Of a stretch of 64,000 nucleotides of DNA, positions 10,874-64,000 are shown piece by piece. This stretch comes from Candidatus Moraniibacteriota bacterium (GTDB taxonomy: Bacteria; Patescibacteriota; Minisyncoccia; Moranbacterales; GCA-2747515), in assembly GCA_942490825.1 (NCBI GenBank), contig CALNYG010000005.1, positions 134,240 through 198,239 of the forward strand, given 5' to 3'. Under the pieces are notes generated by a model. That model ran no database searches. It was not told the DNA's origin and worked only from the letters and a program-made list of their open reading frames with translations. Made by a program: the position numbers and the translations under genes. How positions within the stretch are numbered: the stretch's first letter is position 1; the number at the start of each line of letters is the position of its first letter.

Positions 10874-12745
10874 ATGTTATTTAGTAAAAAACAAAAAAAA
10901 CAAGATCAGGTAATTGTAGACACTCCAGAAGAAATTTTGGAACGTGAAAAATTCTATCAAAAAGGAGTTGCTACAGTTCGTGGATTAATTGCTCCAAGTG
11001 CTTTAAGTATAACTCCTAGTAGCATTCAAGTTGGCGACACACTTTCATCTACTTTATTTGTAATAGCTTATCCACGATACCTAAACGACAATTGGTTTTC
11101 ACCAATTGTAAATATAGATTTTCCAATGGATGTGGCTATGTTTATTCATCCGGCAGACAGTCGTAATGTGTTAAAAAGTTTGAGAAAAACTTCTACTCAC
11201 GTTCAATCACAAATGCATATCGAAGCAGAAGCAGGAAAAATCCGCGATCCTATGCTAGAGACTGCATTAGAAAATGTGGAGACTTTACGAACACAATTAC
11301 AACAAGGAACAGAGAGGTTTTTTAGATTTGGTCTGTATGTAACTTTCTATGGAGAAAATGAGGAGGAGTTAAGACGAAATAAAAATGAGGTTACGGCGAT
11401 TCTAGAAGCTCAAATGATTTATACAAAACCTGCCACTTTACGCATGGATCAAGGTTTTCTTTCCAGCATTCCTCTATGTAATGATAAACTAAATAACGGA
11501 AATAATTTAAATACCGCACCACTTTCAACAACGTTTCCGTTTGTTTCTTCCAATCTCTCTTCTAATGAAGGAATTCTTTATGGTATTAATCGACATAACA
11601 ACAGCTTGATTTTGTTTGATCGATTTAATATGGAAAATGCCAACATGGTAATTTTTGCTAAATCTGGTGCTGGTAAAAGTTATTTTGTAAAATTGGAAAT
11701 TTTGCGATCAATGATGTTCGGAACTAATGTTATTGTAGTTGATCCAGAAAGTGAATATAAGCATTTATGTCAAACTGTAGCCGGAAGCTTTATTAAAATT
11801 TCGCTTGGATCAAAGGCATGTGTTAACCCTTTTGAACTACCAAAAATTCCCACTGATGAAAGACCTCAGGATGTTTTTAGAAACACAGTTGCTGGTTTAA
11901 TTGGTCTTCTTCATTTAATGCTAGGATCTGTTACAGCTGAAGAGGATACTGTATTAGAAAGAGGTGTTAGAGAAGCTTATGCAGTACGAGACATTAGTGA
12001 AAATAGTAATTTCGGCTCTATTCCACATTCAGGCTACCCAACAATGTCAGATCTTTATGAAGTTCTAGTCAACATGGATGGTGGTGATTCTCTTTCAAAA
12101 AGACTGGCTAAATATACCGAGGGTATTTTCGCTGGATTTTTAAATCGACCAACAAATGTTGAGATTAATAATCAGATGGTTGTATTCAATATTCGGGATT
12201 TAGAAGATGAATTGCGACCAATTGCTATGTATATTATTTTACAATTTATTTGGAATGAGATGCGTTCTAATATGACTCAAAGAATGGTTGTAGTTGATGA
12301 GGCTTGGGTTATGATGCAAAGTGAGGACGCAGCTTCTTTTATGTTTAGTATTGCAAAGCGTTGTCGTAAATATTACACAGGATTAACAACCATTACACAG
12401 GATGTGAGTGATTTCATGTCTAGCCGTTTTGGTAAGCCAATTGTAACTAACTCATCACTTCAATTACTTCTTCGTCAATCTCCAGCTTCAGTTGATGTTA
12501 TTGCAGATACTTTTTATTTAACTGATCATGAGAAATTTTTATTACTAGAGAGTGGCGTTGGAGAGGGAATTCTTTTTGCAGGGCCAAAGCATGCAGCAAT
12601 TAAAATTATTGCTTCTTATAGTGAAGATAAGATTATTACCTCAGATCCTCGACAGTTAGAGAAAATGAAAGAGCAAGAAGAACTGGAAAAACAAGTAGGT
12701 CTAGAAAATGTTCAACGTCAGTCAGATGATATTGAGTATCAGTAA
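10874..12745 (+). CDS. virB4: VirB4/TrsE/PrgJ-like type IV secretion ATPase
   Basis: 623 aa. Walker A FAKSGAGKSYF, Walker B MVVVDEAW, and a C-terminal TTITQDVSDF motif. Confidence 0.85.
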   Translation: MLFSKKQKKQDQVIVDTPEEILEREKFYQKGVATVRGLIAPSALSITPSSIQVGDTLSSTLFVIAYPRYLNDNWFSPIVNIDFPMDVAMFIHPADSRNVLKSLRKTSTHVQSQMHIEAEAGKIRDPMLETALENVETLRTQLQQGTERFFRFGLYVTFYGENEEELRRNKNEVTAILEAQMIYTKPATLRMDQGFLSSIPLCNDKLNNGNNLNTAPLSTTFPFVSSNLSSNEGILYGINRHNNSLILFDRFNMENANMVIFAKSGAGKSYFVKLEILRSMMFGTNVIVVDPESEYKHLCQTVAGSFIKISLGSKACVNPFELPKIPTDERPQDVFRNTVAGLIGLLHLMLGSVTAEEDTVLERGVREAYAVRDISENSNFGSIPHSGYPTMSDLYEVLVNMDGGDSLSKRLAKYTEGIFAGFLNRPTNVEINNQMVVFNIRDLEDELRPIAMYIILQFIWNEMRSNMTQRMVVVDEAWVMMQSEDAASFMFSIAKRCRKYYTGLTTITQDVSDFMSSRFGKPIVTNSSLQLLLRQSPASVDVIADTFYLTDHEKFLLLESGVGEGILFAGPKHAAIKIIASYSEDKIITSDPRQLEKMKEQEELEKQVGLENVQRQSDDIEYQ

Positions 12746-19869: not shown

Positions 19870-19888
19870 GTGCTCGCCGCACGGGCTT
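19870..19888 (-). repeat. GC-rich 19-mer AAGCCCGTGCGGCGAGCAC (reverse copy)
   Basis: Exact GTGCTCGCCGCACGGGCTT. Confidence 0.8.
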
Positions 19889-29832: not shown

Positions 29833-29888
29833 GGAAATTTTAATGACAGAAAATTTGTAGGGGTTTGCCAGTGGCAAACCTAAAAATT

Positions 29889-29903
29889 CCGTGCGGCGAG
29901 TAC
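29889..29903 (+). repeat. Truncated 19-mer copy CCGTGCGGCGAGTAC
   Basis: Read directly. It abuts twin-hairpin copy B. Confidence 0.6.
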
Positions 29904-55305: not shown

Positions 55306-55836
55306 TTAATTTTTATTTAAATATTGTTGATAAATTCTAGAATTTAAATGACACAATGCTACAGCCAAGGCATCAGCAGCGTCATCTGGTTTTGGGATCT
55401 CTTTTAATTTTAGCACATTTTTTATCATTAACTGCATTTGTTTTTTGTCGGCTCGTCCGTAGCCTGTTAATGATTGTTTTATTTGCAGCGGTGTATATTC
55501 TCCAATTGGTAATTTTTTATTTTTTAAAATGTATAAAATTACGCCTCGAGCTTGAGCGACGGAAATTACGGTTTTTTTATTTTTAAAATAAAATAATTCT
55601 TCTACGGCTGCTTCGTCTGGTTTATATTCTTTAATCAATTCTTTTAAATCTGTTGCGATTAAATCTAAGCGTTCTGCGTCTGATAAATCTGACGATGTGG
55701 TTATTTGTCCGTAATCGATTGTTTTTATTTCTCTGTTTTCATTTTGTTCTAAAACGCCCCAACCAACAATTGCTGTTCCTGGGTCGATTCCGAGGACTCT
55801 GATTTTAGATTGGTAGACATTTAGATTGGTAGACAT
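55306..55836 (-). CDS. ruvC: Holliday junction resolvase RuvC
   Basis: 176 aa. IRVLGIDPGTAIVGWGVL plus the C-terminal DAADALAVALCH. Confidence 0.9.
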   Translation of the reverse strand: MSTNLNVYQSKIRVLGIDPGTAIVGWGVLEQNENREIKTIDYGQITTSSDLSDAERLDLIATDLKELIKEYKPDEAAVEELFYFKNKKTVISVAQARGVILYILKNKKLPIGEYTPLQIKQSLTGYGRADKKQMQLMIKNVLKLKEIPKPDDAADALAVALCHLNSRIYQQYLNKN

Positions 55837-55843
55837 TTAGATT
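55805..55843. repeat. 16-bp tandem repeat TTAGATTGGTAGACAT x2.4 covering the ruvC start codon
   Basis: Copies at 55805-55820, 55821-55836 and a partial one at 55837-55843. Each full copy carries an ATG on the minus strand. Confidence 0.8.
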
Positions 55844-55923
55844 TTTTATTTTAATAATTTATAAAAAATATTCAGAAAATAGTAAAACTTTTTAAGTAAA
55901 AGTCTAAGCGTCTAATGTTCTAA

Positions 55924-56658
55924 CTAATCTATGTCTTTTACATTATCAAAAATTTCTTGAACGTCATCTTGGCTGTCGATGATCTCGAAAAGTTCATTAT
56001 ACTTTATTTCAGTCTCTTTGTCAATATTGATTAGTTGTTTTGAGATATAGTTTATTTTTAAATCGCTTACTTTAAAATTTTCTTCTTCAAGTTTATTGTA
56101 AACTTTTTGTAAATCTGTTTTTTCGGTAATTACTAATATTTCGTTTTTTTCTATTATTTTTAAATCTTTTGCACCAGCTTCAATTATTTCTAATTCAGCA
56201 GATTCTAAGTCTTCAGTTTCTAAAATAAATTGTCCAACTTCTTCGAATTGAAAACTGACACTTCCGTTTGGTACGAATTTTCCTCCGTTCTTTTTTAATA
56301 ATGATTTTATTTCGCTGACGGTTCGGTTTATATTATCGGTGGCACAAAGGATCATCATGGCGATCATTTCGTCTGTGTTGGTGGGGAAGTAGGCTTCGTA
56401 AAATACTTCTTCGATTTTTCCTTCGCCATTTTCTCCTAATCCTCTTTTGATGGCTCGCTGGATGTTGTCTTTGGGCATGTTGGCTTTTTTGGCTTGATCG
56501 ATGGCTAGTTTTAGGCTCGTGTTTTTTTCTATGTCATCGCCTCCGTTTTGGACTAGGATTATTATTGCTTTGGCTAGACGGGTGAATACTTTGGATCTTT
56601 TTTTGTCTTGGGCTTCTTTGCGGTGTTTTATTCCTGACCATTTATTGTGTCCTGACAT
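55924..56658 (-). CDS. yebC: YebC/PmpR-family transcriptional regulator
   Basis: 244 aa. MSGHNKWSGIKHRKEAQDKKRSKVFTRLAKAI is the canonical N-terminus. Confidence 0.9.
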   Translation of the reverse strand: MSGHNKWSGIKHRKEAQDKKRSKVFTRLAKAIIILVQNGGDDIEKNTSLKLAIDQAKKANMPKDNIQRAIKRGLGENGEGKIEEVFYEAYFPTNTDEMIAMMILCATDNINRTVSEIKSLLKKNGGKFVPNGSVSFQFEEVGQFILETEDLESAELEIIEAGAKDLKIIEKNEILVITEKTDLQKVYNKLEEENFKVSDLKINYISKQLINIDKETEIKYNELFEIIDSQDDVQEIFDNVKDID

Positions 56659-62113: not shown

Positions 62114-63151
62114 TTATAATAATTTATCTTGCGAGCTAGATTTCTCAATATGTTCATAACCCAACTCTGTAACTATTCTACCCCGAGGTGAACGAGTAAT
62201 CAAGCCCAACTGCATCAAAAACGGTTCATAAACATCCTCAATAGTTTGCACTTCTTCAGATAACGCATTAGCAATAGTTTGAATTCCGACTGGACCACCT
62301 TTAAATTTTTCAATAATTAATTTTAAAAAAGCACGATCGGTAGATTCTAATCCTTTATCATCAACATCTAACATTTTCAAAGTTTTTTCAGCGACAAAAT
62401 CGTCAATACTTTCATCATCATGAACTTCAGACCAATCACGAGCTCGTTTTAAAAGGCGGTTGGCAATACGTGGAGTTTGGCGAGCAGACTTTGCTAATTT
62501 TTTAGCTCCCTCTAACGTTACTTTGCAATTTAAAATTGAGGCATTTCGTGTAATGATTTCCTTGATATTATCTTCTCCGTAAAACTCAAGTCGATGAATT
62601 ACGCCAAAACGATCTCGCAATGGACCAGTCAAAGATCCCATTCGAGTTGTCGCTCCGATCAAAGTAAATTTAGGTAAATCAATTTGTAAGGCTTGTGCAC
62701 TCGGACCTTTTCCAACTACTAAATCAAGTTTGTGATCCTCCATGGCAGGGTAGAGAACTTCTTCAACAGATTTATTCAATCGATGAATTTCGTCAATAAA
62801 AAGAACATCGCCATCTTGTAAATTTGTTAAAATAGAACCTAGGTCGCCAACTCGTTCGATTGCTGGTCCAGATGTGGTTTTTATATTTACATTCATTTCT
62901 TTAGCAATAATATTTGCTAAAGTTGTTTTTCCTAATCCTGGTGGTCCGTAGAGAAGTACATGTTCTAAAGATTCACCTCTTTTTTTTGCGGCTCCGAGAA
63001 AAATTTTAAGTTGTTTTTTTATTTTTTCTTGTCCGACATATTCATCTAATTTTTGTGGTCGCAAAGTTAATTCAAAAGAATCATCTTCTGTTGTTTCTAC
63101 AATTTTTGTCTCTTTATTATTTTCAGGTTTTTCGCTTTGTTTTTCAATCAT
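62114..63151 (-). CDS. ruvB: Holliday junction branch-migration helicase RuvB
   Basis: 345 aa. [33 protein letters not shown]. Confidence 0.95.
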
Positions 63152-63218
63152 TGGGATGGATAGTTAGATTTTAAGATGTTTGGGTTTGTAAAAATAAATT
63201 TAGATTGTTTATAATAAA

Positions 63219-63367
63219 GTGCTCGCCGCACGGGCTATGATACATATCCGCAGGGGTTTGTTAGTGGCAAACCCCTACATAATTTTAAGTTTATTGCAGG
63301 GCAGGCACAAGGCACTGCCCCTACAAAATTATACTTCCGTAGGGAACGGTTTGAAACCGTTCCCTAC
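63219..63367. repeat. Repeat island: reverse 19-mer plus three GC-rich hairpins
   Basis: GTGCTCGCCGCACGGGCT (63219-63236); AGGGGTTTG-ttagtgg-CAAACCCCT (63252-63276); GGGCAG-gcacaaggca-CTGCCC (about 63298-63320); GTAGGGAACGGTT-tga-AACCGTTCCCTAC (63339-63367). Confidence 0.75.
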
Positions 63368-63536
63368 AATCTTGCTGGAAGTAGTGTGTCGTAGACCACC
63401 CATTCTGACTTTAAATATTTTGAACTATGGAGGTGTCAGTATGGTTACATTTTATAAAATAAAGTTTAAAATGACTGTAGAATTGGGGATTTTTTGATAT
63501 TATTAATTTTTTCTCTTCCGCTCATTATAGCATCGC

Positions 63537-63565
63537 TTGACACGATTTCAAAATCGTGATATTAT
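63537..63565 (+). promoter_or_regulatory. Consensus promoter TTGACA-17-TATTAT
   Basis: Spacing counted directly. No plausible protein gene follows on this strand. Confidence 0.65.
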
Positions 63566-63570
63566 ACGGG

Positions 63571-63836
63571 GTCACATTAACAACAGGGAAAAATTATGTA
63601 ATAGTAATTTTAGGACTGTAGACAGTTTGGGCTTTCTATCTTTTAGCCTAAGCACGGGAGTTGTTTTGTCCAGACTGGGTAAGGTGGTTTCGGCTGCGTT
63701 ATTCCTCGACTCTTCTCTCACCTCATCAATCATTGATTATTGAGTATTGTCTACAGCCTTGAGATTGTTATCACTTACATTAAGTTAAGTGCAAGATTTG
63801 AAAAAAATCAACCTAAGTTTTGAGGTTGATTTTTTA
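63571..63836 (+). ncRNA. Candidate structured non-coding RNA (about 265 nt), family not identified
   Basis: It starts at a GGGG about 6 nt after the -10 and ends at the terminator AAAAAATCAACC-taagttttg-AGGTTGATTTTTT. Long-range pairings: 63616-63624 CTGTAGACA with 63749-63757 TGTCTACAG; 63598-63611 with 63761-63774 (13/14 including G-U); 63573-63580 with 63785-63791. Confidence 0.5.
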
Positions 63837-64000
63837 ATTTGAACTATTTTTAATTGAAAACCAGTCTCCGTTCGTTATAAAAATAATGTGATCTAAAAAA
63901 TTAAGTCTGAGAATGTCAGCACCTTTTTCTAAAACATCGGTTGTGGTGATATCTTGTTGGGAAGGTTTTAAATCGCCAGTGGGGTGGTTGTGCAAAACTA
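63834..64000 (-). CDS. radC: RadC-like JAB/MPN-domain protein, C-terminal part (gene continues beyond the window)
   Basis: My translation of the minus strand is ...VLHNHPTGDLKPSQQDITTTDVLEKGADILRLNFLDHIIFITNGDWFSIKNSSN-stop. It carries the HNHPxG JAMM motif. Confidence 0.75.
   Translation of the reverse strand, partial: VLHNHPTGDLKPSQQDITTTDVLEKGADILRLNFLDHIIFITNGDWFSIKNSSN

Follow-up and report, generated by a model that had tools for sequence, protein, structure and literature searches.

An apparently undescribed structured RNA encoded back to back with ruvB in Moraniibacteriota

What is encoded in the 682-nt gap that separates ruvB from radC near the end of this 64,000-nucleotide stretch of DNA from a Candidatus Moraniibacteriota bacterium, referred to below as the window? 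An initial annotation made from the letters alone had marked here a structured RNA candidate that could be assigned to no class, and considered it compatible with either a 6S-like RNA or a lineage-specific one. Through the comparison of the locus with its relatives, it can now be stated with very high confidence that a real and independent non-coding RNA gene of roughly 265 nt lies at positions 63571-63835 of the plus strand. Its 185-nt core is a four-way junction that stands on a 22-bp closing stem, and the RNA appears to represent a new family of sequence and structure, apparently undescribed so far.

The gap holds one complete transcription unit on the plus strand. The promoter (63537-63565) is composed of the -35 box TTGACA (63537-63542), a 17-nt spacer with TG near its end (63557-63558), and the -10 box TATTAT (63560-63565), with GGGG at 63568-63571 on its 3' side. 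It scores 11/12, a value reached by nine sites in the 64 kb, only four of which carry the TG; its earlier ranking among the best promoters of the window is thereby upheld. The terminator that had been placed about 265 nt farther on, and described as common to the convergent radC, was likewise recovered. It is a bidirectional intrinsic terminator at 63801-63835, active in principle on both strands, which comprises an A-run (63801-63807), the stem TCAACCT/AGGTTGA (63808-63814 with 63823-63829; 7 bp, containing G+C and lengthened by A-U pairs) and a T-run (63830-63835), and it forms a 13-bp hairpin in the minimum free energy (MFE) structure of the window. Because it adjoins the stop codon of radC (63834-63836, minus strand), the terminator is read as shared between the RNA on the plus strand and radC on the minus strand. 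The transcript ends are predicted from promoter geometry and terminator position: the likely start is G63571, the G of a conserved GUC, and the 3' end would fall in the T-run. The 5' leader (63571-63600) varies in length and sequence among relatives except for this initial GUC. The transcript interval has a G+C content of 0.44-0.45 against about 0.27 around it, and an MFE of -75 kcal/mol in comparison with -57.4 +/- 4.7 for shuffled sequences (z = -3.76; 0 of 200 shuffles as stable).

Relatives were retrieved by using RuvB as the anchor, with one genome per species, which gave 80 loci and, with the window, 81 sources. The nearest of these loci is 92% identical and is labelled Candidatus Moraniibacteriota, a group of the Candidate Phyla Radiation (CPR)/Patescibacteria. 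The central 108 nt of the RNA (63616-63723) were matched in 33-38 of the 80 loci by blastn and by nhmmer with the intergenic region, in every case upstream of ruvB and on the opposite strand. In alignments of these relatives the promoter is kept, the strand pair CUGUAGRC...GUCUACAG is nearly invariant, and a hairpin with the loop CUAUCUUUU is conserved together with the blocks CCAGA, GGUGGUUUCGGCUGCG and UUCCUCGAC; one hairpin is variable, and the terminators differ in sequence. A covariance model, R1, of 183 positions and 54 base pairs was built from the pairs given by RNAalifold plus an added four-pair helix, P3; its E-values are rough, which does not affect its bit scores. R1 matches the window once in 64 kb, at 63594-63778 and along the whole of the model (151 bits, E about 1e-36), and it matches 40 of the 80 genome loci with 77-185 bits, that is, 41 of 81 sources with the window included. 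On the reverse strand no score exceeds 37 bits.

A metagenome scan free of the ruvB anchor was carried out with an RNA-only pattern, CTATCTTTN{22,32}CCAGAYN{28,34}CCTCGRC, which fetched at least 120 stretches; at least 74 of them hold R1 matches, with 85-184 bits. Genome loci and metagenomes combined provide at least 96 distinct RNA sequences. A scan of viral contigs returned two pattern matches, neither of them an R1 match, and R1 run with filters off on 12 ruvB loci of other lineages gave noise only; as far as sampled, the family is restricted to a clade of Moraniibacteriota. The window itself carries the features by which the family is recognised, namely an R1 match with helices P1 to P6, the CUAUCUUU loop, the AG within CCAGA, and CCUCG, and its invariant blocks lie at 63636-63643, 63670-63674 and 63704-63708. 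Searches against Rfam 15, which had been proposed as a check, matched no known family: at gathering thresholds the window yields tRNA only, at E<=10 the region 63100-64000 gives seven chance-level hairpin or terminator matches far below the thresholds, and at E<=5 a set of 15 relatives gives terminator noise only. ARAGORN reports a tRNA-Gly and no transfer-messenger RNA (tmRNA) in the window. In the full-text literature, no description of a Moranbacteria or Patescibacteria non-coding RNA, 6S RNA or ruvB-associated motif was found. With promoter, fold and terminator conserved across a Moraniibacteriota family and no Rfam 15 match, the lineage-specific RNA is the half of the original suggestion that holds.

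The fold is supported by covariation among the homologues, another of the checks that had been advised. RNAalifold applied to a MAFFT alignment of 22 sequences returned 50 pairs, 30 of them with compensatory changes. In the alignment of 96 sequences, which was fitted to R1 so that its compensatory counts are somewhat inflated, changes on both sides are seen in 39 of the 54 pairs (829 cells), and none of 500 shuffles reaches any of the observed measures. Standard pairs occupy 94.4% of the base-pair cells of these sequences, in comparison with 43-49% after a shift of the 3' partners by 1-3 columns. In a structure-blind ranking by mutual information with average product correction (MI-APC), the top 15 pairs all fall within the model; the MAFFT/RNAalifold result, the slid-partner control and the blind ranking all concur with the R1-fitted alignment. 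The strand of the RNA is fixed as plus because G-U pairs are frequent.

The closing stem P1 is formed by a 5' strand at 63601-63624 and a 3' strand at 63748-63771, with 22 bp in three segments, 17 of which are compensatory among the 96 sequences; its inner 9 bp, CUGUAGACA, and the UGUCUACAG of the 3' strand are nearly invariant. Three collinear end-to-end helices had been drawn from the single sequence, and two of them, 63598-63611/63761-63774 and 63616-63624/63749-63757, correspond to P1 and show strong covariation. The outermost, 63573-63580/63785-63791, is seen in the single-sequence MFE structure only and lacks comparative support, because in relatives the leader is variable and next to no tail precedes the terminator. 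The hairpin P2 (63626-63652), anticipated as a local hairpin at 63628-63650, has an 8-bp stem and an 11-nt loop UUCUAUCUUUU (63634-63644), of which CUAUCUUU (63636-63643) is at least 97% conserved; seven of its eight pairs are compensatory and 99.6% of its cells are paired. It is followed by a long irregular arm, P3-P4-P5, of roughly 20 bp (63657-63718). In this arm P3 pairs 63657-63660 with 63715-63718 (4 pairs, 4/4 compensatory), P4 pairs 63668-63670 and 63673-63674 with 63706-63710 around a bulged CA (2/5 compensatory), and P5 pairs 63677-63688 with 63693-63705 beneath a UUCG cap at 63689-63692 (5/11 compensatory); the AG at 63672-63673, within CCAGA (63670-63674), and CCUCG (63704-63708) are invariant. 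The variable hairpin P6 (63722-63744) pairs CUCA with UGAG (63722-63725/63741-63744) and AAUC with GAUU (63728-63731/63735-63738); this pairing is taken from the MFE fold, the covariance-model alignment of the window being off register at P6. A hairpin is present in this position throughout the family, with 4/4 model pairs compensatory and 85% of cells paired. The end-paired rod first imagined for the molecule is thus replaced by a four-way junction on a long closing stem.

Most of the conservation falls in four parts of the RNA: the P2 loop, the bulged lower part of the long arm (AG in CCAGA, GG, CCUCG), the G-U-rich tip of P5, and the inner P1 helix, which is conserved in its sequence. The junction strands, which are poorly conserved, and the tips of P5 and P6 are variable, and insertions of 20-110 nt are tolerated there. 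No convincing non-nested pair emerged when MI-APC was used blind to look for pseudoknots or tertiary covariation. One candidate contact, AUCU of the P2 loop with AGAU in CCAGAU, gained no support: the bases are invariant, and the divergent loci L034, L039, L040 and L042 show no consistent co-variation.

Some relatives depart from this plan in ways that are recorded here as separate observations. Four loci keep the core but carry structured insertions of 20-110 nt in helix tips or internal loops, at the tip of P5 in L014 and L015 (70-110 nt) and between P3 and P4 in L023 and L029. A subclade of 11 members (L002-L008, L044, L109, L198 and L172) bears an extra hairpin, GCUGCCUACGG...AAAAGGAGGUAGC, ahead of the P1 3' strand. 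Nine of the 11 have GGAGG followed at 3-7 nt by ATG, GTG or TTG, and in seven of these the start codon falls on the first bases of UGUCUACAG; of the other two, L002 has the weaker TAGGTT in place of GGAGG, and in L044 the nearest TTG is just upstream and out of frame. The resulting open reading frames (ORFs) are tiny and non-conserved, from 9 to more than 34 codons, and the purine block of the extra hairpin is complementary to the invariant P2 loop. This hairpin may be a ribosome-engaging variant, an internal target mimic or an accident. The copy of the RNA at L030, positions 2612-2759, is missing P2 entirely and the inner part of the P1 5' strand, through either decay of the gene or a faulty assembly; its neighbour L022 has a run of N just downstream.

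Signals for expression are kept together with the fold. Of the 96 distinct members, 94 have TTGACA without a mismatch and T[AG]nnnT after 17 nt, 92 of these with TG, and the -10 box is followed after 6-8 nt by the conserved GUC (T in 93/93, C in 87/93). The model begins 8 to 109 nt past the -10 box (median 35 nt). A terminator consisting of a hairpin and a T-run was detected in 70 of 90 members, at a median of 31 nt past the model, and the stem sequences are unrelated. The distances between invariant blocks are spread over the three mod-3 classes (45/29/17, 73/17/1 and 51/14/22), so that no reading frame is conserved; since indels between these blocks fall in all three frames, the RNA is non-coding.

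The most constant feature of the locus outside the RNA is ruvB (62114-63151, minus strand; Pfam RuvB_N, AAA_lid_4 and RuvB_C). It is adjacent and divergent in 41/41 RNA-bearing sources that were anchored on ruvB (40 genome loci plus the window), and among the metagenome loci that were anchored on the RNA the count is 68 of 74. Five of the six remaining metagenome loci have at most 318 nt upstream; in the sixth, L167, no ruvB is matched over 1373 nt. Across 90 loci the ruvB start codon lies at a median of 75 nt from the -35 box of the RNA, and the 385 nt of the window are the second largest, because repeat elements enlarge the gap. A divergent promoter, presumably that of ruvB, is found at 63551-63524 on the minus strand, with TTGAAA at 63551-63546, a 16-nt spacer and TGcTATAAT, the -10 box being 63529-63524 (11/12, with TG). 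Its -35 box sits within the spacer of the RNA promoter. The divergent extended -10 element is kept in relatives as ATTnTAnCA, from -13 to -5 relative to the RNA -35 box, with 63-81 of 93 sequences agreeing at each conserved position. Given these overlapping divergent promoters, ruvB and the RNA have one back-to-back control region. In the window, the RNA promoter has its spacer taken up by a perfect 8-bp inverted repeat, CACGATTT-ca-AAATCGTG (63541-63558), which also overlaps the ruvB -35 box. The repeat looks like an operator, but in most relatives this spacer is A-rich.

The wider neighbourhood is conserved to a lesser degree. In the window the RNA is followed by radC, convergent on the minus strand and with the RadC JAB domain (Pfam), and in most relatives by a convergent tandem type II/IV secretion ATPase (T2SSE) of about 1,020 aa and then a DHH-family gene; on the other side the window and its relatives have in common a run of ruvB, an unknown gene and a bPH-domain gene. 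Local synteny is fairly conserved in general, and only the link with ruvB is universal. The usual ruvA-ruvB operon is split in the RNA-bearing clade. In several of the 12 loci of other lineages (L046, L051, L054, L056, L060 and L061) a ruvA homologue lies directly upstream of ruvB, and in the RNA-bearing L119 the RNA and ruvA (11793-12356) share a contig, about 10.6 kb apart. In the window, where yebC and ruvC stand side by side at 55306-56658, ruvA adjoins neither ruvC nor ruvB.

Other elements near the RNA were also seen. Between ruvB and the RNA promoter, at 63213-63240, lies one of seven copies in 64 kb of a dispersed repeat, (A)AGTGCTCGCCGCACGGGCT, mostly followed by TTTT; the others are near 19872 (+), 27552 (-), 30069 (-), 33279 (-), 38935 (-) and 46490 (-). 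It folds as a 5-bp G+C-rich hairpin, GCUCG-ccgca-CGGGC, its copies stand mostly in intergenic A/T-rich stretches of this AT-rich genome, and it could be a REP-like (repetitive extragenic palindrome) element or a recurrent terminator module. At 63249-63370 there are three successive hairpins that end in CCCTACA(A/T)AAT, spaced by 43-46 nt and with a G+C peak of 0.47-0.50; a related copy occurs at 29852-29890 (-), and even L001, the relative of 92% identity, does not share the sequence. Joined with the dispersed repeat copy, the three hairpins bring the ruvB/RNA gap to 385 nt; they probably represent an inserted repeat element within a predicted long 5' untranslated region of ruvB. On the far side of the RNA, four loci (L036, L149, L014 and L110) carry small predicted membrane proteins of 100-160 aa on the same strand, which share the C-terminal motif I(T/I)Y..GEL.SVKL; their ORFs have a Shine-Dalgarno sequence in L036, L110 and L014, and no terminator intervenes in L149 and L110.

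What might such an RNA do? Granted that the gene is real, the function that we favour, with a confidence that stands about midway between acceptance and doubt and that draws on conservation patterns, is that of a stable partner-binding RNA, either the RNA of a small housekeeping-type ribonucleoprotein or one that titrates a protein. The RNA would be made constitutively and abundantly from its near-consensus sigma-70 extended -10 promoter, as is suggested by the invariance of that promoter, and would act in trans as a stable folded molecule. The P2 loop CUAUCUUUU, the bulged nucleotides and the invariant inner P1 helix would provide the surface on which a partner docks, most probably a protein; a conserved loop, conserved bulges and a conserved helix around a variable junction fit protein docking, or a tertiary contact between loop and bulge, better than a ligand pocket at the junction. 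The fixed linkage with ruvB is best explained by the overlapping control region, which would make separation of the two genes difficult and may link their transcription. Several points weigh against this interpretation. About 20 of 90 members have no detectable terminator, and about 10 of these have a Shine-Dalgarno sequence and ATG of small ORFs within 60 nt downstream, which implies read-through into the downstream gene in some genomes. The ends of the RNA and its expression are read from sequence signals only. The invariance of the P2 loop and bulges places them outside the reach of covariation, and the absolute linkage with ruvB could signify a local function, for instance promoter competition or regulation of ruvB.

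Other functions have to be weighed against a partner-binding RNA. The exposed, invariant and C/U-rich loop of P2 could be the seed of a base-pairing small RNA (sRNA), with CUAUCUUUU, and perhaps UUCCUC, directed at purine-rich, Shine-Dalgarno-like sites in mRNAs. In line with this, AGGAGGUAG of the extra-hairpin subclade is a complete complement of the loop once three G-U pairs are admitted, and the leader of L013 carries GGAGGGUAG. However, complements of the loop are not enriched in the leaders (1/94 against 2.85 expected), a count on which pairing of the loop with its own leader was rejected; those of the loop 8-mer in the 64-kb window are not concentrated at ribosome-binding or start sites, and a fold this elaborate with conservation this deep is atypical of base-pairing sRNAs. 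This explanation is considered unlikely. A strictly local role, in which transcription of the RNA or the RNA itself controls the overlapping ruvB promoter and nothing else, would account for a linkage and orientation kept in essentially all loci with enough flank, for a ruvB -35 box inside the RNA promoter spacer and for the short median gap. It is nevertheless improbable: a conserved 185-nt fold with covariation in 39 pairs is more than promoter interference requires, the RNA and the ruvB mRNA do not overlap, so that their geometry rules out antisense pairing, and synteny extends to the unknown and bPH-domain genes beyond ruvB and to T2SSE and the DHH gene on the opposite side, so that the linkage may be in part inherited gene order. 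A bolder proposal would couple the RNA to RuvB itself, its four-way junction mimicking a Holliday junction and engaging or titrating RuvA/RuvB, much as 6S RNA mimics open promoter DNA; in a wider form, the RNA could be a subunit of a ribonucleoprotein for recombination or DNA uptake in these episymbionts. The circumstances that recommend it are the invariant ruvB linkage, the four-way shape, the separation of ruvB from ruvA, and neighbours such as radC, comEC-like and PilB-like genes, and it rates as a highly unlikely analogy. The idea that the RNA replaces RuvA is ruled out in at least one member, L119, by the ruvA on its contig.

The remaining alternatives would make the locus something already familiar, and the RNA is probably neither a cis-regulator nor a homologue of 6S RNA, signal recognition particle (SRP) RNA, RNase P RNA or tmRNA. 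The same-strand Shine-Dalgarno sequences and ATG codons that follow about 10 terminator-less relatives are what a leader or riboswitch of a downstream gene would predict; yet in the window and most relatives the next gene, radC or T2SSE, is convergent and behind a terminator, the same-strand ORFs are small and mostly unrelated to each other, and the junction strands are poorly conserved. As no same-strand gene is conserved downstream, a leader function seems scarcely probable. For a small protein gene it can be said that the window holds a 68-aa ORF (63537-63743, +) and a 53-aa ORF (-), and that stop-free stretches in relatives are fairly long (median 72 codons). Against it, the 68-aa ORF begins at 63537, the first T of the -35 box, with no ribosome-binding site and no Pfam match, as the initial annotation had already suspected in finding no ORF here with a proper ribosome-binding site; indels between the invariant blocks break every frame, substitutions follow the paired helices, and the probability left to a coding gene is close to nil. 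A 6S-like RNA would bind the RNA polymerase holoenzyme as a mimic of the open promoter, with P1 as closing stem, P3-P5 as terminal stem and the junction as bubble. The new RNA resembles 6S RNA (ssrS; RF00013) in its ends paired in a long closing stem, in the size of its core (about 185 nt), in its very strong and invariant sigma-70 promoter and in its single copy in the window, and the literature search found no report of 6S RNA in Patescibacteria. 6S RNA is, however, a rod with a large open central bubble, whereas here the covarying hairpins P2 and P6 (7/8 and 4/4 pairs compensatory) close both would-be bubble strands and give a four-way junction overall. The 6S models moreover find no match at the gathering score, at E<=10 in 63100-64000 or at E<=5 in the 15 relatives. 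The 6S-like suggestion has accordingly lost most of its ground, only the paired ends and the strong promoter recalling 6S, and is clearly unlikely. A highly diverged SRP, RNase P or tmRNA overlooked by the Rfam models might be supposed from the housekeeping-type strength and conservation of the promoter and the divergence of CPR lineages. The consensus nonetheless lacks a GNRA-capped AGCA helix, GGAAAGUCC, ACAGAA, a T-arm and a CCA end, in agreement with the signature motifs first reported as missing, Rfam gives no match at the E-values above, ARAGORN no tmRNA, and the order of helices is unlike the SRP Alu domain or the RNase P core, which leaves this possibility only a very slight probability.

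The significance of the finding lies partly in its hosts. The CPR/Patescibacteria comprise a large share of bacterial diversity with genomes of about 1 Mb, and to our knowledge almost nothing is known of their non-coding RNAs beyond the universal ones. An invariant promoter and a covarying fold of 54 bp, kept in at least 96 variants from streamlined genomes, make it very likely that the RNA is important to the cell. With it, the small set of structured bacterial RNAs of no known function gains a medium-sized orphan class, and since the class comes with a covariance model, clear predicted ends and a genetic clue in the ruvB linkage, it is directly testable.

Comparison with known systems places the RNA more closely. 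Large, Bacillus-type SRP RNA shares with it a length of about 265 nt, paired ends and a long irregular arm with side hairpins; it differs in its helix 8 motifs, for in the new RNA the sole long arm ends in UUCG closed by U-G, without AGCA or GGAA, and the hairpins stand on either side of the arm, not both before it. With respect to RNase P, conserved regions CR-I (GGAAAGUCC) and CR-V (ACAGAA) do not appear in the consensus, whose core has 185 nt. Retron msr-msd RNA is similar in its terminal inverted repeats that close the molecule and in its small hairpins followed by a long stem-loop. No reverse transcriptase was found by Pfam among the neighbours in the window and two relatives, which are ruvB and radC or T2SSE, and the new RNA is for this reason not regarded as a retron; it also has an extra hairpin after the long arm, and its locus is fixed and vertically inherited, not a patchy defence island. 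The closest likeness is with orphan motifs such as Bacteroidales-1, Chlorobi-1, Flavo-1, Acido-Lenti-1 and raiA, reportedly from the surveys of Weinberg and Breaker, which are said to be stand-alone genes of 100-250 nt with promoter and terminator, non-coding, each confined to one lineage, with a covarying multi-stem fold and no assigned function. From these the new RNA is set apart by the lack of an Rfam 15 match, by its place in the CPR/Patescibacteria, by a promoter that is unusually invariant, and by a back-to-back linkage with ruvB that is essentially absolute. As a kind, it belongs with these lineage-restricted orphan structured sRNAs.

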